Shown: positions 4,512-53,146 of the stretch, piece after piece
Layout of the letters: each line of letters begins with the position of its first letter
Numbering within the stretch: position 1 is the first letter of the stretch
Virus record (IMG/VR): IMGVR_UViG_3300033475_000009
Span: 1 to 64,000 of that record
Length of the DNA stretch: 64,000 nucleotides
Source of the DNA: a virus
Taxonomy: Duplodnaviria > Caudoviricetes
Direction: 5' to 3' (one strand)
Position numbers and translations under genes: made by a program
The notes under the pieces: model-generated
The model's input: the letters and a program-made list of their open reading frames with translations, nothing else
Databases searched by the model: none
Told to the model about the DNA's origin: nothing

Positions 4512-4877
4512 TTAGTCTATAATCATATAGTTATTTAATTCCATATCTTCTCTTACATAATGATTAAAGCCTAACTCTTTATATCTAGTTTGTATAATTA
4601 AATCTTCACTATTAATTGATTTATTTACATATAACACTCTATCATATACTATATCATATAACTTCATGCCTTCTTTAAGTTCTTTATATGAAATAATATT
4701 TCTTAAAGTAGAACGGATTAATGCTCTCTTTTCATTAAGTAGAGTTAATATATAACTATAATCTACATATGATTTTTCTATGATACTTCCTAATTCTCCT
4801 GTATAAGCATGTGTATGAGGAAGGGATTGAAGTAGTTCTATTTCTACTTCTAATTTAAGTTTTTCTTTTTCTGTCAT
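4512..4877 (-). CDS. hypothetical protein (121 aa)
   Basis: ORF track. Confidence 0.65.
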   Translation of the reverse strand: MTEKEKLKLEVEIELLQSLPHTHAYTGELGSIIEKSYVDYSYILTLLNEKRALIRSTLRNIISYKELKEGMKLYDIVYDRVLYVNKSINSEDLIIQTRYKELGFNHYVREDMELNNYMIID

Positions 4878-4919
4878 AAATATTTATTTTGGGTTGTTTG
4901 CAATTTAGTAAAATATTAT

Positions 4920-4927
4920 TACCTTTA
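4920..4927 (+). promoter_or_regulatory. -7-like promoter element for leader 1
   Basis: TACCTTTA, TTTG at 4897-4900, ATG 4 nt downstream. Confidence 0.55.
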
Positions 4928-4931
4928 CATT

Positions 4932-4985
4932 ATGTTATTCACTAGAAAAAATAATAATGGTAAGGATTGGGCTAGAAGGGTCTAA
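4932..4985 (+). CDS. attenuator leader peptide 1 MLFTRKNNNGKDWARRV
   Basis: 17-codon ORF; KNNNGKDW run matches downstream tRNAs Trp/Gly/Asn/Asp/Lys. Confidence 0.85.
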   Translation: MLFTRKNNNGKDWARRV

Positions 4986-5012
4986 GGCTAAACTATTATA
5001 TAAATATATTAG

Positions 5013-5050
5013 AATCCTTAGACCTGATAAATCTAAGGATTTTTTATTTT
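5013..5050 (+). terminator. attenuator terminator 1
   Basis: AATCCTTAGA/TCTAAGGATT stem + TTTTATTTT; 5' arm can instead pair with GGTCTAAGG (4979-4987). Confidence 0.85.
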
Positions 5051-5052
5051 AT

Positions 5053-5121
5053 ACACTTTAGGCTAAGGTAGCCAAGAGATCTCCAAAATCTTAGGAAGTA
5101 GTTCGATTCTACTAGAGTGTG
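5053..5121 (+). tRNA. trnW: tRNA-Trp(CCA)
   Basis: ACACTTT/AGAGTGT acceptor, GAGAT-CTCCAAA-ATCTT anticodon arm, AGTAG-TTCGATT-CTACT T arm. Confidence 0.85.
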
Positions 5122-5126
5122 CATAA

Positions 5127-5198
5127 GCAGTATAAGTGTTGATGAATACATACCTGACTTCCAATCAGGAGTAGACAGATTATTACTGTCATACTGCT
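5127..5198 (+). tRNA. trnG: tRNA-Gly(TCC), atypical T loop
   Basis: GCAGTAT/ATACTGC, CCTGA-CTTCCAA-TCAGG, T loop ATTATTA, U73. Confidence 0.8.
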
Positions 5199-5203
5199 CT
5201 AAA

Positions 5204-5275
5204 GAGATAGGTAATAGTTCGATTCTATTTATAATATCTTAAAGATATTATAAGGTGTACTGGTGGCATAATCTC
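5204..5275 (+). ncRNA. circularly permuted tRNA-like RNA 1
   Basis: GAGAT - T arm AATAG/TTCGATT/CTATT - closed acceptor-like hairpin TATAATATCTT/AAGATATTATA - D arm GTGT/ACTGGTG/GCAT - ATCTC. Confidence 0.7.
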
Positions 5276-5279
5276 GCAT

Positions 5280-5351
5280 GGGAAGTTAGCTTAATGGTAA
5301 AGCTTCTAGCTGTTAACTAGAAAGATATTAGTTCGAGTCTAATACTTCCCT
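5280..5351 (+). tRNA. trnN: tRNA-Asn(GTT)
   Basis: GGGAAGT/ACTTCCC, TCTAG-CTGTTAA-CTAGA, canonical D and T arms. Confidence 0.95.
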
Positions 5352-5357
5352 CTACAA

Positions 5358-5513
5358 TGTTAGGTGATGAAATTGGTAGACATTTCCCTACTGTCTCTAG
5401 GGAGAGGAACAACTGATAAACTCAGAATAGTGGATTGACCACCAAAGTAAGTTAAAAGATATTTTGTTCTGAAGCTAAAGTCCTCGTGTAAGGTTCGAGT
5501 CCTTCCCTAACAG
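5358..5513 (+). ncRNA. tRNA-like RNA with GTC anticodon and 85-nt variable arm
   Basis: TGTTAGG/CCTAACA acceptor, class II-type D arm, TCCCTA-CTGTCTC-TAGGGA, variable arm closed by GAGGA/TCCTC, T loop TTCGAGT. Confidence 0.8.
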
Positions 5514-5514
5514 C

Positions 5515-5638
5515 TAAGAAAGAAGAATAGGTTAAAAACCTATATAAGTAAATGTTGGCTAGAACTAAAATATTAAAAGTAATATAGATAACGCTTTTAT
5601 TTTATACTTATTGATGTAACTGACAGCATACTTTCTTA
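5515..5638 (+). ncRNA. circularly permuted tRNA-like RNA 2
   Basis: TAAGAAAG - ATAGG/TTAAAAA/CCTAT - ATAAGTA...54 nt...TACTTAT - TG - ATGT/AACTGACA/GCAT - A - CTTTCTTA. Confidence 0.6.
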
Positions 5639-5642
5639 ACCT

Positions 5643-5714
5643 GGTCTATTAGTATAATGGTTATTATATTCCACTGTCACTGGAAAGAAGAGAATTCAAT
5701 TTTCTCATAGACCG
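5643..5714 (+). tRNA. trnD: tRNA-Asp(GTC)
   Basis: GGTCTAT/ATAGACC, TTCCA-CTGTCAC-TGGAA, G73. Confidence 0.9.
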
Positions 5715-5719
5715 CTTAT

Positions 5720-5793
5720 TTCCTTGTAGCTTAATTGGCTAAAGCACCATCCTTTTAAGATGGGTTATGTGAGTTCAAATCTCACCAGGGAAA
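5720..5793 (+). tRNA. trnK: tRNA-Lys(TTT)
   Basis: TTCCTTG/CAGGGAA, CCATC-CTTTTAA-GATGG. Confidence 0.92.
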
Positions 5794-5809
5794 CTAAAAT
5801 TTATTTTAT

Positions 5810-5817
5810 TATCTTTA
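5810..5817 (+). promoter_or_regulatory. -7-like element for HNH 1
   Basis: TATCTTTA-CAAA-ATG, same spacing as leaders 1 and 3. Confidence 0.45.
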
Positions 5818-5821
5818 CAAA

Positions 5822-6271
5822 ATGAAAAAATGTACTAGATGTAAAGAAGAAAAATCTTTTGAATCCTTTAGTATAAAAGGAAATAGAAAAAAAGATAATA
5901 GTATTATATATCAAGATTTTTGTAAGAATTGTCAAAATGAATATACTAAAAAATGGTATATAGAGAATAAAGAGAAACATAAAAGAAATACAGCTATTCT
6001 AAATAAGAAAAACTTTGAAAGTATTCGATATTACATATACAATTATTTAAAAGATAAAGAATGCATAGATTGTAAATCAATAGATTTTAGAACTTTTCAA
6101 TTTGATCATAGAGATAGAAATAACAAAGTTTCAGAAATATCTACAATGGTAAAAAATAGAGTTAGACTAGAATTGATAAAGTTAGAAATAAATAAATGTG
6201 ATATAAGATGTGCTAATTGTCATATCATTAAAACAGGTATTGAAAATAATGCTTGGTGGACAAAATTATAA
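5822..6271 (+). CDS. HNH endonuclease, homing type, with Zn-binding N-terminus
   Basis: CTRC...CKNC; CIDC...FQFDHRD...KCDIRCANCHIIKT. Confidence 0.85.
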   Translation: MKKCTRCKEEKSFESFSIKGNRKKDNSIIYQDFCKNCQNEYTKKWYIENKEKHKRNTAILNKKNFESIRYYIYNYLKDKECIDCKSIDFRTFQFDHRDRNNKVSEISTMVKNRVRLELIKLEINKCDIRCANCHIIKTGIENNAWWTKL

Positions 6272-6312
6272 AATATTTTTGTTTACTATTTTGAACTTTT
6301 AATTATTAATAT

Positions 6313-6320
6313 TAGTTTTG
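6313..6320 (+). promoter_or_regulatory. -7 promoter element for tRNA-Met and leader 2
   Basis: TAGTTTTG matches TAnnTTTG, 8 nt before the tRNA. Confidence 0.55.
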
Positions 6321-6328
6321 TACCATAT

Positions 6329-6401
6329 TGCGAGTAGGACAAGTGGCTAAGTCAGAAGTCTCATAAGCTTTCAGGAGTGGGTTCAATTCCCACACTCGCT
6401 A
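6329..6401 (+). tRNA. trnM: tRNA-Met(CAT), probably initiator type
   Basis: TGCGAGT/ACTCGCT with 1:72 mismatch, GAAGT-CTCATAA-GCTTT, A73. Confidence 0.85.
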
Positions 6402-6412
6402 CTAAAAATAAT

Positions 6413-6481
6413 ATGAAAAATTTATCACTATATAGTTTATGTTCGTATCTCTTATATAAAGAGGTTGATATAACTATATAG
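6413..6481 (+). CDS. attenuator leader peptide 2 MKNLSLYSLCSYLLYKEVDITI
   Basis: 22-codon ORF; 12 consecutive Leu/Ser/Tyr/Cys codons matching the downstream array. Confidence 0.88.
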   Translation: MKNLSLYSLCSYLLYKEVDITI

Positions 6482-6510
6482 TAAATAAAAAACTAATAAA
6501 TAGTTATTTG

Positions 6511-6545
6511 ACCTCTAGGAATAAAATCTTAGAGGTTTTTTATTT
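6511..6545 (+). terminator. attenuator terminator 2
   Basis: ACCTCTAGGA/TCTTAGAGGT + TTTTTATTT; alternative helix 6460-6477 with 6500-6516. Confidence 0.85.
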
Positions 6546-6548
6546 CAG

Positions 6549-6622
6549 GTCCTTATGATGGAATAGGTATACATACTAGTTTTAGAAACTAGGTTCTGTA
6601 GGTTCGAGTCCTACTAAGGATA
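6549..6622 (+). tRNA. trnL: tRNA-Leu(TAG), short variable region
   Basis: GTCCTTA/TAAGGAT, CTAGT-TTTAGAA-ACTAG, A73. Confidence 0.88.
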
Positions 6623-6625
6623 CAA

Positions 6626-6703
6626 GTACCATTGGTGGAATAGGTAGACACGCTACACTTAAGATGTAGTCTTCGGGTATAAGTTCGAGTCTTATATGGT
6701 ACA
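6626..6703 (+). tRNA. trnL: tRNA-Leu(TAA)
   Basis: GTACCAT/ATGGTAC, CTACA-CTTAAGA-TGTAG, miniature UUCG variable arm. Confidence 0.92.
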
Positions 6704-6708
6704 CAATA

Positions 6709-6779
6709 GGGATAAAGGTCAGGGTAACTCACAATGACTGTAAATCATAGGTGCTGAAGTTCGATTCTTCATTATCCCA
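6709..6779 (+). tRNA. trnY: tRNA-Tyr(GTA), short variable region
   Basis: GGGATAA/TTATCCC, ATGA-CTGTAAA-TCAT, TGAAG-TTCGATT-CTTCA, A73. Confidence 0.8.
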
Positions 6780-6784
6780 CTTAT

Positions 6785-6870
6785 AGAGAGTAAACTAATC
6801 AGGGGATTAGACCTTCCTGCTAAGAAGTGTGAAGCCTAAAAACTTTGAGTTTCGAGTACTCTGCTCTCTG
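6785..6870 (+). tRNA. trnS: tRNA-Ser(GCT)
   Basis: AGAGAGT/GCTCTCT, CTTC-CTGCTAA-GAAG, long variable arm, G73. Confidence 0.88.
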
Positions 6871-6876
6871 CTATAA

Positions 6877-6967
6877 GGAGGTTATCTGGCTGGATGAAGA
6901 GCCTGTCTTGAAAACAGGTAAGTCGATTTAATAAGTTGGCTTGTGAGTTCGAGTCTCACAGCCTCCT
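6877..6967 (+). tRNA. trnS: tRNA-Ser(TGA)
   Basis: GGAGGTT/AGCCTCC, CCTGT-CTTGAAA-ACAGG, long variable arm. Confidence 0.9.
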
Positions 6968-6970
6968 CTT

Positions 6971-7042
6971 GTCTAGTATTACTAATGGATAGTATATAGT
7001 CTGCAAAACTATAAATAGAAAGTTCGATTCTTTCACTAGACT
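6971..7042 (+). tRNA. trnC: tRNA-Cys(GCA)
   Basis: GTCTAGT/ACTAGAC, ATAGT-CTGCAAA-ACTAT, U73. Confidence 0.9.
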
Positions 7043-7066
7043 CTTGTTTATTTAAAATAAAATATA

Positions 7067-7074
7067 TAATTTTA
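7067..7074 (+). promoter_or_regulatory. -7-like element for leader 3
   Basis: TAATTTTA-CATT-ATG; TTTACATTATG is identical to leader 1. Confidence 0.5.
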
Positions 7075-7078
7075 CATT

Positions 7079-7153
7079 ATGAAACAGATAATAATAGCCA
7101 TTATTCGTATAGCAGTCAGATCTAATCTGAGTGAGGATAATGTTATTATATAA
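7079..7153 (+). CDS. attenuator leader peptide 3 MKQIIIAIIRIAVRSNLSEDNVII
   Basis: 24-codon ORF; 11 consecutive Ile/Ala/Arg/Val codons matching the downstream array. Confidence 0.88.
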   Translation: MKQIIIAIIRIAVRSNLSEDNVII

Positions 7154-7186
7154 GATACGATTGTTGTAGATTTTGATTAATACACT

Positions 7187-7221
7187 AGCCTTACTCTAAA
7201 AAAGTAGGGCTTTTGTATTTT
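7187..7221 (+). terminator. attenuator terminator 3
   Basis: AGCCTTACT/AGTAGGGCT + TTTGTATTTT; alternative pairing GAGTGAGG (7129-7136) with CCTTACTC (7189-7196). Confidence 0.82.
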
Positions 7222-7223
7222 AT

Positions 7224-7296
7224 GGGGGATTAGTTAAGATGAATATAATAATACACTTGCAATGTATAGTCAGGAGTTTGAGTCTCCTATTCTCCA
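7224..7296 (+). tRNA. trnA: tRNA-Ala(TGC)
   Basis: GGGGGAT/ATTCTCC with G3:U70, ATACA-CTTGCAA-TGTAT. Confidence 0.9.
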
Positions 7297-7301
7297 CTAG
7301 T

Positions 7302-7373
7302 AGGAATATAGTAGAAAGGTTAGCACAATTGCCTGATAAGCAATTAATCCTAGTTCGAGTCTAGGTATTCCTA
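7302..7373 (+). tRNA. trnI: tRNA-Ile(GAT)
   Basis: AGGAATA/TATTCCT, ATTGC-CTGATAA-GCAAT. Confidence 0.9.
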
Positions 7374-7377
7374 CTAT

Positions 7378-7449
7378 AGCTTTATAGTACAATGGATAGT
7401 ACATCTGTCTTCTAAACAGAGAATGATTGTTCGATTCAATCTAAAGCTA
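7378..7449 (+). tRNA. trnR: tRNA-Arg(TCT)
   Basis: AGCTTTA/TAAAGCT, TCTGT-CTTCTAA-ACAGA. Confidence 0.92.
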
Positions 7450-7452
7450 CAG

Positions 7453-7524
7453 GGAAGTATAGTTCAATGAATAGAATCTATAGCTACGGACTATAGGATA
7501 AAGGTTTGAATCCTTTTACTTCCT
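7453..7524 (+). tRNA. trnR: tRNA-Arg(ACG)
   Basis: GGAAGTA/TACTTCC, TATAG-CTACGGA-CTATA. Confidence 0.88.
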
Positions 7525-7529
7525 CTTAT

Positions 7530-7600
7530 TGCTTATTAGTTTAATGGAAGAACACTAGTTTTACATACTAGTAGAGATAGTTCGATTCTATCATAAGCAA
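7530..7600 (+). tRNA. trnV: tRNA-Val(TAC)
   Basis: TGCTTAT/ATAAGCA, CTAGT-TTTACAT-ACTAG. Confidence 0.9.
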
Positions 7601-7605
7601 CATAC

Positions 7606-7680
7606 TGAGAGTTCATATAATGGTTATTATGCCAATCTTATACATTGGTCAAAAGAGTTCAATTCTCTTACTCTCTACCA
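7606..7680 (+). tRNA. trnI: tRNA-Ile(TAT)
   Basis: TGAGAGT/ACTCTCT (1:72 mismatch), CCAAT-CTTATAC-ATTGG, A73, encoded CCA. Confidence 0.85.
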
Positions 7681-7725
7681 TTAAAACTTTTATTATTTTT
7701 ATTTTGTATATATTATACTTTATAT

Positions 7726-7733
7726 TACCTTTG
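7726..7733 (+). promoter_or_regulatory. -7 promoter element for leader 4
   Basis: TACCTTTG, exact TAnnTTTG match; ATG 7 nt downstream. Confidence 0.65.
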
Positions 7734-7740
7734 AATTAAT

Positions 7741-7800
7741 ATGAAGAATGTAACAATCTTTACTCCCTTTACGCAAGAGCATCAGTTTCTGATGGGGTAA
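7741..7800 (+). CDS. attenuator leader peptide 4 MKNVTIFTPFTQEHQFLMG
   Basis: 19-codon ORF; Thr/Phe/Gln/Glu/His make up 10 of 12 codons in the control run, matching the downstream array. Confidence 0.88.
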   Translation: MKNVTIFTPFTQEHQFLMG

Positions 7801-7833
7801 AGGATATTGTTTTCTTCTACATTAAATTTCCTT

Positions 7834-7871
7834 CCCTATCAAACTAAAAATCTGATAGGGTTTTTCTTTTT
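7834..7871 (+). terminator. attenuator terminator 4
   Basis: CCCTATCA/TGATAGGG + TTTTTCTTTTT; alternative pairing TGATGGGG (7790-7797) with CCCTATCA. Confidence 0.85.
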
Positions 7872-7881
7872 ATGTATTTAT

Positions 7882-8382
7882 ATGATAGTAAGTTGTCAAC
7901 ACTGTGGAAAAGATTTTAATTGTACTAGTAGAAGATATAATTTTAATATTAAAAAAGGTTTTAAAATATATTGTTCTAGAGAATGTAATCATAAAGATAA
8001 AATTAAAAACATAATAGTAAGATGTAATTATTGTGGTAAAGAAGTAATTAAAAAACAATATAATCTAAATAAAACTAAATCAGGTAATTATTATTGTAAT
8101 AAGTCTTGTGCTAATTCTATAAATAATTCTTTGTATAAAGTTGGAGAAAAGCATCCTAATTTTATTAATGGTAGATCCTCATATAGAAATATAAAACTTA
8201 GAGATTCTAATTACTGCTGTGAAAATTGTGGAATAACTGATAAAAGAGTTATAGAAGTTCATCATATAGACAGAGATAGAACCAATAATAAATTAGAAAA
8301 TCTTAAAATTTTATGTGCTAATTGTCACTTAATAGAACATTATGAAGAAAGAAAATTAAAAAATGGTGTTAGTGGCAGATAG
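7882..8382 (+). CDS. HNH endonuclease with Cys-rich Zn-binding repeats (166 aa from the corrected start)
   Basis: CQHCGK..YCSREC, CNYCGK..YCNKSC, CENCG..EVHHIDRDRTNNKLENLKILCANCH; start moved downstream of the terminator. Confidence 0.85.
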   Translation: MIVSCQHCGKDFNCTSRRYNFNIKKGFKIYCSRECNHKDKIKNIIVRCNYCGKEVIKKQYNLNKTKSGNYYCNKSCANSINNSLYKVGEKHPNFINGRSSYRNIKLRDSNYCCENCGITDKRVIEVHHIDRDRTNNKLENLKILCANCHLIEHYEERKLKNGVSGR

Positions 8383-8437
8383 GTAATGCGCTAGTTTGTG
8401 AAGCTAGTTTATATGGGTTCAAATCCCATCTAACACC
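8365..8437 (+). tRNA. trnH: tRNA-His(GTG)
   Basis: G-1:C73, GTGTTAG/CTAACAC, CTAGT-TTGTGAA-GCTAG. Confidence 0.92.
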
Positions 8438-8442
8438 TATTA

Positions 8443-8514
8443 GCTCCTGTCGTCTAGTGGCTAGGACGAATGCTTTTCAAGCATTAAAAGAGGGATCGAA
8501 ACCCTTCAGGAGTA
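8443..8514 (+). tRNA. trnE: tRNA-Glu(TTC)
   Basis: GCTCCTG/CAGGAGT, AATGC-TTTTCAA-GCATT. Confidence 0.9.
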
Positions 8515-8520
8515 CTATAT

Positions 8521-8594
8521 TCCAGATTAGTTTTATATGGCTAAAACACATCTCTTGTAAAGATAAGTACTCAGTTCGATGCTGAGATCTGGAT
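8521..8594 (+). tRNA. trnT: tRNA-Thr(TGT)
   Basis: TCCAGAT/ATCTGGA, ATCT-CTTGTAA-AGAT, CTCAG-TTCGATG-CTGAG. Confidence 0.88.
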
Positions 8595-8599
8595 CTTAT

Positions 8600-8672
8600 G
8601 GAACTAAAGCTAATCAGGTGAAAGCACTGGTCTGAAAAACCAGAGAGGTTAGATCGTTACTAACTGGTTCCA
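8600..8672 (+). tRNA. trnF: tRNA-Phe(GAA)
   Basis: GGAACTA/TGGTTCC, CTGGT-CTGAAAA-ACCAG. Confidence 0.88.
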
Positions 8673-8679
8673 CACATAA

Positions 8680-8752
8680 TGTCCTATGGTGTAATTGGCA
8701 ACACGTCTGACTTTGATTCAGGAGAGTCTAGGTTCAAACCCTAGTAGGATAA
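8680..8752 (+). tRNA. trnQ: tRNA-Gln(TTG)
   Basis: TGTCCTA/TAGGATA, TCTGA-CTTTGAT-TCAGG. Confidence 0.92.
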
Positions 8753-8757
8753 CTAAG

Positions 8758-8928
8758 TTATTTTATAATTAATTTTGTTATAAAATTCTTAATTTTAGAT
8801 AATATATTTTCTTCACTAACTATCTGAGTACTAATTTCTTCTATTACCTTAGTATCTTCTACTTTATTTTTATATCTTTTTAAGTGAGTAAATCCACTAT
8901 GTTTTCTATGTCTATTTCTATTTCTCAT
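8758..8928 (-). CDS. small hypothetical protein (56 aa) with basic N-terminus
   Basis: Manual translation MRNRNRHRKHSGFTHLKRYKNKVEDTKVIEEIS...; not in the ORF track. Confidence 0.4.
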   Translation of the reverse strand: MRNRNRHRKHSGFTHLKRYKNKVEDTKVIEEISTQIVSEENILSKIKNFITKLIIK

Positions 8929-8995
8929 ATAACATTTATTTATTTTATATTTAAAATTAATAATTAATTATATGGTTTTATAATTATTTTAATTA

Positions 8996-9003
8996 TATAT
9001 TTG
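8996..9003 (+). promoter_or_regulatory. -7 promoter element at the start of the + strand module
   Basis: TATATTTG upstream of ORF 9030. Confidence 0.55.
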
Positions 9004-9029
9004 TCTAACCAAAACAATAGTAGTTATAT

Positions 9030-9425
9030 ATGTCAGAAGTAGGTACTTCATCCAAGATATTAACTCTTAGGATTAGTCAGGAAGATTATATAGAGAAGTA
9101 CCTACTTCTTTGGAAAGGTTATTTAAATCTTACTAATAGTGATATATCTGTTCTTAAAGAATTTATTATTATATTTCGTAGTATAAATAATACTAATGAG
9201 GATTTAGCTTTCATAGAAGTATTTAATAAAGAAAATAGGAAAGTAGTAGCTGATAGATTAGGCATATCTGAATACTCATTTAATAATATCTTTATGAGGT
9301 TAAAGAATGAGAAAGGTATTATACAGAAGACCAGATATGGATACAGACTTAATCCTAAAGTACTACCAGTAGATGAAATTACCTTTAAATTTAAGATAGA
9401 TGGCATACAATCTAGTACCTACTGA
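9030..9425 (+). CDS. putative winged-helix DNA-binding protein
   Basis: HTH-like RKVVADRLGISEYSFNNIFMRLKNEKGII followed by a beta wing. Confidence 0.6.
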   Translation: MSEVGTSSKILTLRISQEDYIEKYLLLWKGYLNLTNSDISVLKEFIIIFRSINNTNEDLAFIEVFNKENRKVVADRLGISEYSFNNIFMRLKNEKGIIQKTRYGYRLNPKVLPVDEITFKFKIDGIQSSTY

Positions 9426-47001: not shown

Positions 47002-47406
47002 ATGCTATTAATAGAAACATATCTTAGAGAAGTATCAGGTAAAGGTATAGGACTCTTTACTAAAAATGATTTATTTGAAGGTCAAATAATTTATGAAGAC
47101 TGTAATATATTTTCAAAAACATTTACAGCGGAAGAATTTAGCTCTCTATCTATTAATCATCAGAATTTTATTAAAATTTATGGTTGTTATATAGAAAAAC
47201 ATAATACTTGGTATTTAGATACAGATAATGGTAGATTTATGAATCATTCTGAAAATCCAAATGTATCTTATGATTGGGGAACATATCTAGAAGGAGGTAA
47301 AGGTACTATGGTAGCACTAAAAAATATTCCAGCAGGTACAGAATTATGTTCTAATTATAGACTACATAGTGATCAATATAAAGATACTCTATTAACATTT
47401 AAATAA
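47002..47406 (+). CDS. SET-domain lysine methyltransferase
   Basis: GKGIGLFTKNDL, RFMNHSENPNV, VALKNIPAGTELCSNY. Confidence 0.88.
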   Translation: MLLIETYLREVSGKGIGLFTKNDLFEGQIIYEDCNIFSKTFTAEEFSSLSINHQNFIKIYGCYIEKHNTWYLDTDNGRFMNHSENPNVSYDWGTYLEGGKGTMVALKNIPAGTELCSNYRLHSDQYKDTLLTFK

Positions 47407-47407
47407 A

Positions 47408-50400
47408 ATGACTAAATGTTTTAATAAAAATCTAAAAGAGTATAAAGTATTACTTAATAAATATAAGTCAGATGCTTTAGTTAATGCTATTATAGAAAAA
47501 CATCAATATAATAAAGGTGATGATACTTATCCTACTATAGAAGAAGCTGAAGAAATATCTAAGGATAAATCTTTTACTAACTATAGTTTAATTAATAATC
47601 TTAAAAAATCATTAGCTATTAGAGTTAAAACTCTTAGAGATGAATTAAGTAAAAGAGAGATTAGTAATAAAATCTATATAGTTAATAAAACTAAAATAGA
47701 TAGGCTTCTTAGACAGATAAATAATTCTCAAGACGAACAAAGCTTTGTATACTCAGTAGAATTTGCTAATCAATATTTAAAAGATATTAAGGACTCCTTA
47801 GAAGATGGAAGATTTGATAAAGCCTCTTTATCTAATAAAGCTAGGTTTTTATCTGATGCTAGTAGATATGTCAAAACTTATGACTCTTTAAGATATATAG
47901 ATACTACTGATTTTTCAGAAAAATCTAAAAAATTGAAAGCAGATTTTAATAATGAGATAGTTATTTTAGAAAAGAAATTACAAGAGTATAAAAAAGAGAC
48001 TGCTATAAATATTGTAGAAGCTCCTTTAACTTCTGAAGAAAAAGAATTTACAGATTTCTCTGATCTACTTACTAATGAGATACAGGATATAAACTCTTTA
48101 GAATTTAGTTTTGGAGCGTTAGCTACTTCTACGAATCCAATACTTGCCAGTATTGATAGAACTTATAAAGCAGAATCAGATAAATCCAGATTAGATACTG
48201 AAGTAGATTATAAAGAACTAGTAGAATTAGATAAAGAACTTACCAAGTTACATGGTTCAGATAAATCCTTTATGTATAATATTTCTTCTGATAATAAAGT
48301 ACAAAATAAATATATAGTATCTGAAATACAACCAGAATTCTATGAACAAAGAGCCAATCTATCTAATCAGTTTCCTACAGTAGATGATAATGGAGATAGA
48401 ATAGAATACAAGTTTGTAGCTAAAGAAGATAATACATCTGAAGCTAATTCTAATAGATTACATAATTTATCTTTAAAGGATAATAAGAAAAAGAAAGGAA
48501 GTTGGTATAAAGAAAACACAGAATACACTAAAGAATTTAAAGATGAACTAGATAAATTTACTAAAGCTAAATATATACTAGTTAATACAGTAAAAGATCC
48601 TAAAGGAAATTCTTTATTTGAGGAATATAGTATTAATCCTAACTTATCTCAACATCAGTATGAACAAATAGAGTACTTTATAGAAACTCAGTTTGATGCA
48701 AGTACCTATTATAGTATAGATAAAGAAGGTAATATTATAGATATAGTAGATCCTTATGATGAAGAAGGTAAGATTAATAATAATTTAGCTGCCTGGAGAC
48801 CCAAAACTAATAATTTTAAACCTAAAGATAAATGGAATGATAGTAGATATAAAGAGTTAATGTCTGGAAGAGATGTTAAATCTGTATATTATCAAACTTA
48901 TAGGAAACTATATGAGAAATACGGTAATAAAGTACCTGAATATTCTTATAAGAATAATGAACTTATAGCTATGCAAAGAAATTGGATTGATAATTTAATA
49001 GATAATCCAAGTTTAAAAAGATTAGGTATTGGTTTATTTCCTGAATGGAAAAGTTCTAATATAAGTAATATAAAAAGAGATGAAAATGGTAATATTATAC
49101 CTATTGGACTAAAACTATTATATACAGGTAGTATAGATACTAATATACAAGATAAAATTAATGCTTTAGAAACTCAGAAACAAAAAGCTTCTACTCAGGA
49201 AGAAATAGATTCTATAGATCTTAAACTTAGTAAATTATATAGTTCAGTTGAGCTTGGTGAAATAAATACTAATCTAACAGAGTCTTTACTTAACTATATG
49301 AATATGGCTAGTAAGTATGAACTTAAAAGTAAATTAGAAAGACAGTTTAGCTTAGTACAGGATGTAGTAGAAGATTCTCAATCTTTTTCTAAAGATTATT
49401 TTACAGGTAAAATTAGACCTACTAATAATAGAATAGCTACTAGATTACAGGATTTTATTAATACTAGAATATATGATGAAGTAAGAGCTGATAGAGATTT
49501 AATTTCTACTAAAATAGCTGATACTATAAGTAAAGTAACTTCTATATCAGGTATAGGATTAGCTATTAGACCTGCATTAGGTAACACTATTACAGCTACT
49601 TTTAATAACTTTATAGAAGGGTTTGGAGGACAGTTCTATTCTACTAATAATTATCTTAAAGGTAAAAAAATAGCGACAGGTAACATTAAACAATTACTTA
49701 ATAGTTTATCTAATGGAGAACAGACTAAAGTTAATGCTCTTATAGATAGATTAGGATTGTTTGAAAAATTTAATCCTGTAAATCCTAATGATGTAGTAGA
49801 GAAACTAGATTGGAAGAGAAAAATGACTTCTGATATATTTTTTATTATGCAAAATGCCTCAGAATACTACGTACAATCTTCTGTAGCTCTAGCTATGACG
49901 CACTCTCACAGAGTAGTAGATGGTAAAATATTAACTGAGTTAGAATATAAAGATTTATATAAAAATAATGAATTTGAAAATTATCCTACCTTTTATGATA
50001 GTATAGATTTTATTGATAATGATATAAAATTTAAAAATGGTTTAGAGGTAAATAATGATAAAACAAAAGATGAAATATTTTTATTTAGTCAAAGAATAAT
50101 AGGTGTTAATCAAAAGATTCATGGTAGATACACTACAGATGATGCTAATAGGTTACAACAATTTGCTTTGGGTAGAATCTTTCAACAATTTAAAAGATGG
50201 ATCTCAGCAGCAGTAGAAGAAAGATTTACTAAGAAACATTATGATTATAGATTACGTTCAGATATAGAAGGTAGATATGTAACTATGTATAGAGTACTCT
50301 CTAATCTAAAGAAAGAAGGTTTAAAAATATTATGGGATTGGAAAAATTTAAATGAATTAGAAAAATCTAATATAAGAAAGATATATATAGAATTATCAGC

Positions 50401-50794
50401 TATTATGACTACTGGTATATTAGCTTATTTAGCTAAAAAAGCTGGAGATAATTTTGATGATGAAGATGAATATTATCTTAGAAAATTAGCTCATTTTGGT
50501 GCTTATATGAGTAATAGAACCTATAGTGAATTAACTACTTTCTATCAACCTAATGTATTATTAACAGCTTCTAATGCTCCAGTATTAGGTACTATTAAAG
50601 AGATGGGTGAATTTGGTAATGCTGTACTTATGTATCCTTTTAGAGATGAAGATACTAATCATTATAGTAGAGGTACTAATAAAGGTAGATTAAAAGTAGA
50701 AAAAGAGTTTGGAGATTTAGTACCTATATGGAAAGATATTAGTTTCTATAACTCTTTAGATGTACAGGGTAATTATTACTTTAGTATAAAATAG
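47408..50794 (+). CDS. ejected cargo protein 3 (1128 aa)
   Basis: Third large helical gene after the RNAP; HGRYTTDD...GRIFQQFKRW motif. Confidence 0.65.
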   Translation: MTKCFNKNLKEYKVLLNKYKSDALVNAIIEKHQYNKGDDTYPTIEEAEEISKDKSFTNYSLINNLKKSLAIRVKTLRDELSKREISNKIYIVNKTKIDRLLRQINNSQDEQSFVYSVEFANQYLKDIKDSLEDGRFDKASLSNKARFLSDASRYVKTYDSLRYIDTTDFSEKSKKLKADFNNEIVILEKKLQEYKKETAINIVEAPLTSEEKEFTDFSDLLTNEIQDINSLEFSFGALATSTNPILASIDRTYKAESDKSRLDTEVDYKELVELDKELTKLHGSDKSFMYNISSDNKVQNKYIVSEIQPEFYEQRANLSNQFPTVDDNGDRIEYKFVAKEDNTSEANSNRLHNLSLKDNKKKKGSWYKENTEYTKEFKDELDKFTKAKYILVNTVKDPKGNSLFEEYSINPNLSQHQYEQIEYFIETQFDASTYYSIDKEGNIIDIVDPYDEEGKINNNLAAWRPKTNNFKPKDKWNDSRYKELMSGRDVKSVYYQTYRKLYEKYGNKVPEYSYKNNELIAMQRNWIDNLIDNPSLKRLGIGLFPEWKSSNISNIKRDENGNIIPIGLKLLYTGSIDTNIQDKINALETQKQKASTQEEIDSIDLKLSKLYSSVELGEINTNLTESLLNYMNMASKYELKSKLERQFSLVQDVVEDSQSFSKDYFTGKIRPTNNRIATRLQDFINTRIYDEVRADRDLISTKIADTISKVTSISGIGLAIRPALGNTITATFNNFIEGFGGQFYSTNNYLKGKKIATGNIKQLLNSLSNGEQTKVNALIDRLGLFEKFNPVNPNDVVEKLDWKRKMTSDIFFIMQNASEYYVQSSVALAMTHSHRVVDGKILTELEYKDLYKNNEFENYPTFYDSIDFIDNDIKFKNGLEVNNDKTKDEIFLFSQRIIGVNQKIHGRYTTDDANRLQQFALGRIFQQFKRWISAAVEERFTKKHYDYRLRSDIEGRYVTMYRVLSNLKKEGLKILWDWKNLNELEKSNIRKIYIELSAIMTTGILAYLAKKAGDNFDDEDEYYLRKLAHFGAYMSNRTYSELTTFYQPNVLLTASNAPVLGTIKEMGEFGNAVLMYPFRDEDTNHYSRGTNKGRLKVEKEFGDLVPIWKDISFYNSLDVQGNYYFSIK

Positions 50795-50880
50795 TGGCTA
50801 AATTACTTATAGTTAATTATTTATACTAATATATAGAATATATTATTTAATTTTACTAGTTTTATAAAAAAATTACAGCT

Positions 50881-51210
50881 ATGTATGGATGGGATTCTTT
50901 CGCCAAGGGTTTAAATGAATTAATAAGAGCTTTTAAAGGAGGTACTAGTCTTGCAGATGAAGTAACTACTTCTACTACAGGTGCTAACTTTGTACAGTTA
51001 GCTGATCACAAATGTTATACAGTTACTATAATAAATGATTCAGGTCAAGATATTAAAGTAAAAGTAAAAACATCTACTGCTTTAATAACAGTATTTAATG
51101 GTTCTTACTTTACCTTTGATGGTATTGAAAACAGTACTAATTTATCTATAAGAAGAAAAGACTCAGTTGGTACAGGAGTTACTGTTCAGTATATTTGTAA
51201 TTCTTATTAA
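50881..51210 (+). CDS. small beta-sandwich virion protein
   Basis: Context; composition. Confidence 0.55.
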   Translation: MYGWDSFAKGLNELIRAFKGGTSLADEVTTSTTGANFVQLADHKCYTVTIINDSGQDIKVKVKTSTALITVFNGSYFTFDGIENSTNLSIRRKDSVGTGVTVQYICNSY

Positions 51211-51223
51211 TCTTTAACAAGCT

Positions 51224-53146
51224 ATGGTTACAGGACAAAAAGGAGGCTTACTTAAAACTGAGTCAAGTAATGATGTATTAAATACTGGATTAGCAGGTTT
51301 TGTAGCTAGTCCTAATACTCCTATAACTAGCTCTGATACTATTTTAACTGCTTTTGATAAAACTCAAGCTCAGTTAAACTCTATAGGTGTAGGCCCATTT
51401 GTAAAAACTGATGGAACCACTCCTCTAACAGGTAATTGGGCTGCTGGTAATTTTTATATATCCGCTCAAACTATAGGTATTAATACAGATGGTACTATTC
51501 CTATTGGTAGTTTACAAGTAGCAGGTAATCTTACTTCTACCATTAGAGGTATAGTTAATGATCAGTATTCTACTGATACTTTATCAGCTAAAATATACAA
51601 TAGAAAAGCTAGAGGTACATTTGCTTCTCCTTCTACTATAATAACTGGAGATGTAATAAGTAATTGGACTTCTTCAGCATATGATGGTACTTCATTTGTA
51701 GATACTGCCGATACAAGAATATTAAGTGCTGGCACTATAAGTACTGGAATAATACCTTCTCAGATGATGTTTAGGACGACTAATAGCTTGGGTACATTAA
51801 CCCAAGCATTAACTATAGATGAAAATCAAAATATATCTGTAGGAAATATCAATCCAGTTACTGGAATGGGAAGAGTTATACATTTGTATAATACTTCTAA
51901 CGTTGCAACATCAGCAGATAATGCATCTTTTTTAGCACAGTCAGTTAATAGAAATTCTTTATTTATAGCAAGAACTTCAGCCACTGGTACTTCATCTTTT
52001 CAACATCAATCTAATGATGGGTTAACAACTTATGGAAGTATGTTATGGTTTGCTTTAGGTGGATCCCATGTTTGGCAAATTAATTCAGATAATACTCAAA
52101 AATTAGCTATAGATACTACTGGATTTTTTTCATTAGGAACTGTAGCCACTCCAACAGCATTACTAGATGTTAATGGTGTATCTACAGCATTTTCTAAAAC
52201 TGCATGGACTACTAATGGAACTATTTTAAGAATCCGACCTTTTACTATTACAGACACAAATTCTTCTGGTACAGTTCCAGCACAATATGTAAATGTTTTT
52301 GGCGCACCAACAATTGCTGCTTCATCAACTACTGCTTATACGTTAAGTGCTAATACATTTATTGCTGGACCTACTGCTGGAACAAATGTAACTCAGACTA
52401 ATACAGCAGCTTTAGTATTAGGAGGAAATTTGTATTTTAATGCTAGTGCGACTGTTGTTGTGGGTACTTTTGATGCACAAACATTAAGTTTAAGAACAAA
52501 TAATACTACTAGACAGTCCATAACTTCAGCGGGAGCATTTACATTTTCATCTTCTGCATTTTCAGGTACACAAGCTTTCATGACCTTTACACCTGGTACA
52601 TCATCATCAGGTACATCATCGGGATTAATTTGGACAGGCGCACCTCATACTGGTCAAACTGCAAGTACTGAGATAATTGATATTAACTATGCTCTTAACA
52701 GAACTATTACATGGTCTACAGGAGCGTTGACTACTCAAAGATTCTTTTTAGTTCAAGCACCTACTATAGCATTTGCAGGAGCTAGTACAGTAACACAAGC
52801 AGCTACATTTGTTATTAGTGCAGCACCTATTGCTGGGGCTAATGCTACTATAACAGAAAGTAATGCTTTTTGGGTACAAAGTGGGCAAAGTAGATTTGAC
52901 GGAGCTATCAAAATAATTGATAATAATATTATTTTAAGCACAGTAACAGGTACTATACTTGGTACATCCACTACTCAGAAATTATCTTTCTGGAATAAAA
53001 CACCAGTAGTTCAACCTACAACATCTATAACAGCGTCTACATTTGCAGCTAACACTTCTGGAATATTGAATGATACAGCTACTTGGGATAGTTATACAAT
53101 AGGAAAAGTAGTAGCAGCTTTAAGACAAGTAGGAATTCTAGCATAA
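51224..53146 (+). CDS. tail fibre / receptor-binding protein (640 aa)
   Basis: Thr/Gly/Ala/Ser-rich beta repeats; C-terminal TQKLSFWNKTPVVQP...LRQVGILA. Confidence 0.75.
   Translation: MVTGQKGGLLKTESSNDVLNTGLAGFVASPNTPITSSDTILTAFDKTQAQLNSIGVGPFVKTDGTTPLTGNWAAGNFYISAQTIGINTDGTIPIGSLQVAGNLTSTIRGIVNDQYSTDTLSAKIYNRKARGTFASPSTIITGDVISNWTSSAYDGTSFVDTADTRILSAGTISTGIIPSQMMFRTTNSLGTLTQALTIDENQNISVGNINPVTGMGRVIHLYNTSNVATSADNASFLAQSVNRNSLFIARTSATGTSSFQHQSNDGLTTYGSMLWFALGGSHVWQINSDNTQKLAIDTTGFFSLGTVATPTALLDVNGVSTAFSKTAWTTNGTILRIRPFTITDTNSSGTVPAQYVNVFGAPTIAASSTTAYTLSANTFIAGPTAGTNVTQTNTAALVLGGNLYFNASATVVVGTFDAQTLSLRTNNTTRQSITSAGAFTFSSSAFSGTQAFMTFTPGTSSSGTSSGLIWTGAPHTGQTASTEIIDINYALNRTITWSTGALTTQRFFLVQAPTIAFAGASTVTQAATFVISAAPIAGANATITESNAFWVQSGQSRFDGAIKIIDNNIILSTVTGTILGTSTTQKLSFWNKTPVVQPTTSITASTFAANTSGILNDTATWDSYTIGKVVAALRQVGILA

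Follow-up and report, generated by a model that had tools for sequence, protein, structure and literature searches.

The DNA that precedes a block of six tRNA genes (Leu, Leu, Tyr, Ser, Ser and Cys) in the genome of a crAss-like phage of a soil Bacteroidota host is likely to function as a ribosome-mediated (leader-peptide) transcription attenuator by which expression of the block is demand-driven and self-limiting, a conclusion held with good confidence in the absence of any experimental or RNA data. The phage probably makes these six tRNAs only when ribosomes decode the codons of the leader slowly. An open reading frame, its codon match to the tRNA block, three alternative helices, a switch dependent on ribosome position, the pattern of conservation and the lack of a scan-detected promoter past the terminator were all observed, either directly or by computation. 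The window analyzed, a stretch of 64,000 nucleotides, is the beginning (64 kb) of an IMG/VR virus record that is 90,549 bp long and has direct terminal repeats. The GC content is 28%, and the window encodes a crAss-like terminase, portal and major head protein; Crass_capsid Pfam matches were obtained in relatives. The closest cultured relatives by terminase (∼36% identity) infect Flavobacterium and the other matching records are Cellulophaga and Bacteroides phages, thus all of the named hosts belong to the Bacteroidota. A sequencing-run search found the complete DNA of the record in one run only, a soil metagenome from which this DNA may originate, and listed no RNA dataset carrying the sequence of the record.

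The tRNA array is located at 4930-8760 on the plus strand, where 21 tRNAs were identified by ARAGORN and an additional Gly(tcc) at 5127-5199 and Ser(gct) at 6783-6871 were recovered with Rfam or relaxed ARAGORN settings. Comparison of the array with cultured phages by megablast gave no match. The gated block (6549-7043, plus strand; ARAGORN and Rfam) is composed of Leu(tag) at 6549-6623, Leu(taa) at 6626-6704, Tyr(gta) at 6709-6780, the Ser(gct) gene called only at the relaxed ARAGORN threshold, Ser(tga) at 6877-6968 and Cys(gca) at 6971-7043, all on the plus strand. Upstream on the same strand is tRNA-Met(cat) at 6329-6402 (ARAGORN; 50.5 bits with Rfam), found at the same position in all relatives. 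It is the sole tRNA of the array placed between promoter and leader, a placement kept in all relatives, and it has a U1.U72 mismatch atop the acceptor stem and is without the three G-C pairs of the initiator anticodon stem. A tRNA-like gene at 5353-5525 in the first block of the array has matching acceptor strands, a T arm and ∼90 extra bases in the middle of the gene, and was called by neither ARAGORN nor Rfam; it may be an intron-containing or otherwise interrupted tRNA. The counterparts in relatives were called oddly, as '???(ttat)' in contig L054 (4084-4172) and as a 94-nt 'Ile(tat)' in contig L065 (3035-3128). Also within the array of the window are two HNH endonuclease ORFs (5822-6271 and 7873-8365). 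HNH homing-endonuclease ORFs are likewise present in the arrays of relatives (L054 6299-6796; L065 3756-4238) at positions that differ between them, and two such ORFs occupy the sites of absent tRNAs, namely tRNA-Pro in the window and both Leu tRNAs in L065. Beyond the window, the full record contains two tRNA matches outside of the array on the minus strand (76165-76226 and 87307-87380).

Between tRNA-Met and the gated block is an ORF of 22 codons (leader b; 6413-6481, plus strand) that extends from an ATG to a TAG stop codon at 6479-6481 and is without a Shine-Dalgarno sequence. Codons 4-15 (6422-6457, plus strand) constitute a control run of twelve consecutive Leu/Ser/Tyr/Cys codons, TTA TCA CTA TAT AGT TTA TGT TCG TAT CTC TTA TAT, specifying Leu-Ser-Leu-Tyr-Ser-Leu-Cys-Ser-Tyr-Leu-Leu-Tyr. 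With TTA and TAT each present three times, together with CTA and CTC, AGT, TCA and TCG, and TGT, the leader samples all six of the downstream tRNAs, including both Leu and both Ser isoacceptors in addition to Tyr and Cys. The probability of at least 12 consecutive in-set codons in 21 codons was calculated to be 9e-8 from phage codon usage and 1.7e-5 from raw trinucleotide composition, and the longest Leu/Ser/Tyr/Cys run among the 311 other short ORFs of the window was 7. Counting against an attenuator, CTC and TCG require extended wobble by tRNAs with U34, and the start codon is only 10 nt 3' of the folded tRNA-Met.

Three sister ORFs are located in the array at 4932-4985 (leader a), 7079-7153 (leader c) and 7741-7800 (leader d), each followed by a hairpin and a T-run. 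The four leaders contain 8, 12, 14 and 10 codons for their own blocks versus 1-5 for the blocks of other leaders, and each of the 22 tRNAs in the four blocks is sampled by the leader of its own block. Three of the four leaders (starts at 4932, 6413, 7079 and 7741) open with Met-Lys-Asn or Met-Lys-Gln, specified by A-rich codons with no Shine-Dalgarno sequence. The product of the four run probabilities is ∼1e-20. These results bear on the possibility that the region is an ordinary spacer in which a chance ORF in AT-rich DNA happens to precede the terminator or processing hairpin of the upstream tRNA-Met unit. Short ORFs are indeed abundant in the AT-rich window, and Leu/Ser/Tyr/Cys codons account for 34% of random trinucleotides at its composition; however, the probabilities calculated for leader b alone (at most 1.7e-5) and for the four leaders are difficult to reconcile with chance. 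Furthermore, the frame and control run are conserved across phages with terminases 68-74% identical (two measured), and the downstream tRNAs would be left without a promoter. Chance is therefore considered a very improbable explanation.

A pattern match to the Bacteroidota-type promoter motif (-33 TTTG, -7 TAnnTTTG) was identified at 6290-6320 on the plus strand, just 5' of tRNA-Met. The motif occurs 10 times in the window versus 3.4 expected, a count reached by none of 100 shuffles. A second occurrence at 7703-7733 is 5' of leader d, and a -7 box directly 5' of tRNA-Met is also present in relatives L054 and L064. Consensus scans, which cannot exclude a promoter, revealed no promoter-like site between 6403 and 6549. 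The terminator is thus situated between the sole promoter-like site and the six tRNAs, with a gap of only ∼11 nt separating its stem from tRNA-Leu. With no promoter detected by the scans 3' of the leader and so short a gap before tRNA-Leu, transcription of the six tRNAs would be possible only via read-through of the terminator. In contrast, tRNA-Met is upstream of the gate and for that reason would be made regardless. In cassettes a, c and d a mere 4-7 nt separate the -7 promoter box from the ATG, an arrangement suggestive of leaderless or near-leaderless mRNAs.

An earlier note on this DNA, made from the sequence alone, had described a leader ORF and attenuator at 6413-6545 with a complete set of three trp-like pairings. 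Re-examination found every coordinate to be correct, the ORF to be present and the codon list to be exact, with Leu(tag), Leu(taa), Ser(gct) and Ser(tga) all sampled; each of the three pairings, including the CTCTT/AAGAG addition to the first, was found to exist as described. Region 1 (6427-6437, plus strand) forms the 5' strand of the 1:2 protector by pairing with 6472-6482 in 11 perfect pairs, enclosing an inner hairpin between 6449-6453 and 6459-6463, with an energy of -13.1 kcal/mol when the inner hairpin is included. Region 2 (6460-6482, plus strand) contains the stop codon and contributes 6472-6482 to region 1 or 6460-6477 to region 3. The 2:3 helix joins 6460-6468 and 6470-6477 with 6500-6516 in 17 pairs with one bulge, and has an energy of -12.3 kcal/mol as named and -16.5 kcal/mol in the masked fold. 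Region 3 (6500-6520, plus strand) comprises the 3' strand of the antiterminator (6500-6516) overlapping the 5' arm of the terminator (6510-6520). The intrinsic terminator (3:4), identified by a terminator scan at 6510-6547 on the plus strand, consists of an 11-bp stem (6510-6520 with 6527-6537), a 6-nt loop and a T-run, and has an energy of -14.7 kcal/mol. The unconstrained minimum free energy (MFE) structure of 6403-6548 is exactly 1:2 plus 3:4. The published energies of the trp helices, ∼-11, -12 and -20 kcal/mol, are in the same range.

Equilibrium folds in which the full terminator was transcribed always favored the terminator, as is likewise the case for the trp attenuator, and the switch must therefore be kinetic, that is, dependent on kinetic trapping. 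Since the complete terminator always wins at equilibrium, folds were computed on the RNA present before the 3' arm is made, with the ribosome footprint masked at each A-site. The 5' arm of the terminator was paired upstream with a probability of 0.53-0.71 for A-sites 6419-6449; the value was ∼0.1 without a ribosome and 0.09-0.28 with the A-site anywhere from 6452 to the stop codon. For the six core bases of the arm the values were 0.93-0.99 in the stalled state versus ∼0.01, across four footprint sizes and three RNA end points, the single exception being the smallest footprint at the stop codon. The contrast between stall and stop was matched by 1 of 150 dinucleotide shuffles of the upstream part, and the three-state contrast by none of 150. 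The same three-state fold picture was obtained for cassettes c and d.

The results are consistent with a mechanism in which transcription would begin at the 6290-6320 promoter and pass the ungated tRNA-Met before entering the leader. When the Leu/Ser/Tyr/Cys codons are read fast, the ribosome would proceed to codons 14-22 and the stop codon and cover region 2, permitting the terminator at 6510-6537 to form and halting RNA polymerase ∼11 nt 5' of tRNA-Leu. If any of the six cognate charged tRNAs were scarce, the ribosome is predicted to stall within 6422-6449, covering region 1 and leaving region 2 free. Free region 2 would pair with region 3, the 5' arm of the terminator would be sequestered and RNA polymerase would read through into the Leu, Leu, Tyr, Ser, Ser and Cys genes. 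Without translation, 1:2 would form and the terminator would act. The circuit would be self-limiting because the tRNA products relieve the stall. The features that define the attenuator class (mini-ORF, cognate codons, terminator and ribosome-position-dependent antiterminator) are met in silico. Translation of the ORF, coupling of transcription to translation in the host and a response of termination to the supply of charged tRNA are inferred only, and the lack of proof for tight transcription-translation coupling in the host is a point against the mechanism.

A terminator/antiterminator output and in-frame codons that match the anticodons of neighboring tRNAs are also what would be expected of direct tRNA sensing similar to a T-box, in which the codons serve as specifiers for the anticodons of uncharged tRNAs without translation. 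A cmscan of 4700-9100 at E ≤ 1 returned only matches to the tRNA clan and one weak unrelated match, with no T-box or other Rfam cis-regulator, and the T-box reading was rejected on the absence of a match to an Rfam T-box model. In addition, the element has a conserved ATG together with a stop codon and an intact frame, twelve different specifiers in a row would be unprecedented, and exposure of the antiterminator follows the position of the ribosome. Direct sensing therefore retains hardly any plausibility compared with sensing by a translating ribosome.

Contigs of relatives (L054, L057, L064 and L065) were found via homologues of the terminase and a neighboring gene. Terminase identity to the window is 74% for L054 and 68% for L057; L064 and L065 were reached by the neighbor gene (63% and 67% identity). 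Homologous arrays with the same four cassettes are present in all four contigs, and the Leu/Leu/Tyr/Ser/Ser/Cys block in the same order was also found in L054, L057, L064 and L068. The terminase of L057 (10001-13171) contains an intein with a LAGLIDADG-type endonuclease and is 1056 aa versus 674 aa in the window. Anti-defense proteins resembling Acb2 or the Tad1 hairpin and Tad2 are encoded in relatives (L060 999-1310; L065 6705-7280), among the small genes that separate the tRNA array from the terminase.

Leader b is retained in all four relatives with its ATG, and the amino acids specified by codons 1-14 hardly vary. All substitutions in codons 4-14 remain within the Leu/Ser/Tyr/Cys set. At codon 5 (Ser), TCA alternates with AGT, in which all three bases differ. 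At the remaining variable codons TGT is replaced by TGC and TCG by TCT, Ser gives way to Leu at codon 11, and codon 14 shows either a Leu to Ser replacement or TTG in place of TTA. With the four leader families pooled, control-run replacements were 11 in-set to 5 out-of-set compared with 13 to 38 in the flanks (Fisher p = 0.0027). As judged from these alignments, the pattern is that predicted by selection on membership in the codon set and not on the peptide. Conservation of the first 14 residues, near-identical in five phages, could nonetheless be taken to indicate a functional small hydrophobic peptide, with the match to the tRNAs either coincidental or reflecting a requirement of the peptide for those tRNAs. 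Such a function is scarcely compatible with the tail of leader b, the C-terminal third, which has undergone a frameshift in L064 and L065 and there specifies unrelated residues; nor would it account for the tolerance of Ser to Leu and Leu to Ser replacements provided they are in the set, or for the positional logic shared by four unrelated peptides. A peptide function thus has only the slightest chance of being correct.

The helices were compared across the same five sequences. All five retain the nine proximal pairs of 2:3, among which one A-U pair is exchanged for G-C and two wobble pairs for Watson-Crick pairs, and the eight distal pairs are found in the window and L057 only. The 1:2 helix is paired in 87-96% of the cells of the five-sequence comparison, with one compensatory edge pair, and the terminator stem is invariant in the five phages. 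Covariation was underpowered: with five sequences and one compensatory pair per helix there was no separation from shuffles, controls that are powerless with so few sequences, and conservation of the helices is therefore consistent with the switch and not proof of it. Computational folding of each homologue separately reproduced the stall-dependent sequestration. The protector 1:2 is part of the MFE structure in the window, L057 and L054, is not favored in L064 and L065, where a later stop codon leaves region 2 uncovered by a ribosome at the stop, and is absent from sister cassette a. The earlier description of the switch as 'full' therefore holds for the window, L057 and L054 and fails for L064 and L065, in which only the stall-dependent competition between 2:3 and 3:4 is kept. 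The broader proposal of a trp-like attenuator is supported by the codon-tRNA match, the masked folds and recurrence of the device in sister cassettes, relatives and a more distant phage contig (L033), with nothing experimental in evidence.

The terminase of L033 is 37% identical to that of the window. The array of this contig contains an unrelated ORF of 19 codons in which Gln, Leu, His and Pro are abundant; downstream of it are a hairpin and T-run and then tRNAs for Pro, Gln, His, Leu(tag) and Arg. Masked folds indicated a three-state switch as in the window. In L064, the entire cassette d (promoter, leader, terminator and tRNAs) is on the opposite strand (5208-6000), having been inverted as one unit. 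The match of leader to block is not absolute. Block d of the relatives starts with tRNA-Pro, and their leader d contains a Pro codon; in the window the tRNA-Pro is lost and the CCC codon is kept. In L065 an HNH gene is found in place of both Leu tRNAs, and the Leu codons of leader b are kept. A separate ARAGORN call of Leu(tag) at 3322-3409 in L065 was rejected, as the anticodon loop and position identify a Lys(ttt) gene with an insertion. Contig L002 has a homologue of leader c ahead of Pro and His tRNAs that carries out-of-set Cys and Lys. The mismatches in window block d, L065 and L002 are read as a lag after tRNA loss or rearrangement, partly beside HNH genes.

The mismatched cases also have to be weighed in favor of another explanation, namely that a translated ORF and a working terminator are present without any sensing of tRNA supply, the element being a fixed partial terminator or a general translation-capacity or polarity element. 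Such an element would set the ratio of tRNA-Met to the downstream block or tie tRNA output to overall ribosome activity. The terminator and promoter are real features under this explanation as well, and the thermodynamic dominance of the terminator is in agreement with it. However, a general sensor needs no block-specific codons, yet each of the four leaders matches its own block only; the replacements remain in the set, and the stall window coincides with the control codons. An element that does not sense tRNA supply is accordingly judged unlikely, although not to be dismissed, and codon-specific attenuation remains the preferred interpretation.

Further occurrences were sought with limited success. 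No tRNA array was found within reach on contigs L003-L032, L060, L061 and L063. In IMG/VR, searches for exact matches to a tRNA-His 24-mer, to the leader core and to the terminator yielded the contig of L002 only or nothing, a pattern scan of genome contigs found nothing, and a scan of metagenome DNA with a tRNA-Leu 20-mer returned ten chance matches inside protein-coding genes and no tRNAs. Flavobacterium phage Fpv20 contains no tRNAs. In Bacteroides phage crAss001, 23 tRNAs are annotated within the stretch examined and no codon-matched mini-ORF and terminator was seen in the gaps, which indicates that the device is not universal in the Crassvirales. Outside of the crAss-like phages, the GenBank record of phage phiCbK annotates rho-independent terminators directly 5' of three tRNA blocks (47300-52700), and an unannotated ORF with 9 of 12 consecutive in-set residues was found ahead of Phe/Val/Ile/Gln tRNAs. 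A quick look at the other tRNA blocks of phiCbK revealed a moderate or weak leader match only. The product gp083 of the same phage (45 aa, ∼58% Ser/Leu/Pro/Lys) precedes a terminator and Pro, Pro, Lys, Lys, Leu, Leu, Leu, Ser and Ser tRNAs. The sequences of the phiCbK and window cassettes are unrelated, as are the phages.

Multivalent attenuators of the enterobacteria include the ilvGMEDA leader (Ile/Leu/Val) and the thr leader (Thr/Ile), in addition to trpL, hisL, leuL and pheL. The phage element resembles them in having a short ORF with a control run for several amino acids, mutually exclusive 1:2, 2:3 and 3:4 helices, an intrinsic terminator downstream and a stop codon inside region 2. It differs in that sampling by the control run extends to isoacceptors, two tRNAs each for Leu and Ser, and in that it is phage-encoded, present four times in parallel in one array, without a Shine-Dalgarno sequence and served by a Bacteroidota-type promoter. 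The genes under control are tRNA genes rather than genes for biosynthetic enzymes, so that the product itself directly restores the decoding of given codons that serves as the signal. In E. coli, the pheST attenuator (pheM leader) controls phenylalanyl-tRNA synthetase and is similar to the phage element in that leader-peptide attenuation governs a component of the decoding machinery and not amino-acid synthesis; unlike the phage element it is cellular, senses one amino acid and controls a protein gene. T-box riboswitches are similar in that the status of tRNA drives the choice between terminator and antiterminator and the controlled genes are of the same amino-acid system, but they bind uncharged tRNA directly via one specifier codon and the T-box motif, without translation. 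To our knowledge, all described leader-peptide attenuators regulate genes for amino-acid biosynthesis or synthetases. The genes behind the attenuator of the window are six tRNA genes, outside the scope of the described members of the class, and this target is the point of novelty and no mechanistic disqualifier. Full-text literature searches, the coverage of which excludes most subscription journals, found no account of leader-peptide control of tRNA genes.

The reason that phages carry tRNA genes and the means by which they control them are debated; the proposals are that the genes compensate for codon usage, replace host tRNAs that have been degraded or allow escape from tRNA-cleaving defenses. 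A more speculative extension, advanced only tentatively and considered possible rather than probable, is that the four parallel attenuators constitute a multichannel sensor of decoding capacity in which depletion of a host tRNA turns on the matching replacement block until recovery turns it off, a counter-defense or codon-adaptation circuit that has recurred independently in unrelated phage lineages. The depletion sensed may be that produced by anticodon nucleases or other tRNA-targeting defenses, or by a mismatch between the phage, with 28% GC, and the host. If attenuation of the tRNA block is correct, a small reporter construct would allow direct tests of the trigger as well as the benefit, a mini-ORF spelled in the amino acids of the block and followed by a terminator ahead of a tRNA block would serve as an annotation rule, and the leaders would offer compact, orthogonal and codon-specific sensors for synthetic biology. 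Classical attenuation, so far associated with genes for amino acids and synthetases, would be extended to RNA genes, the products of which themselves complete the feedback loop, and the phage would gauge the decoding of specific codons for each block and supply tRNAs on demand.
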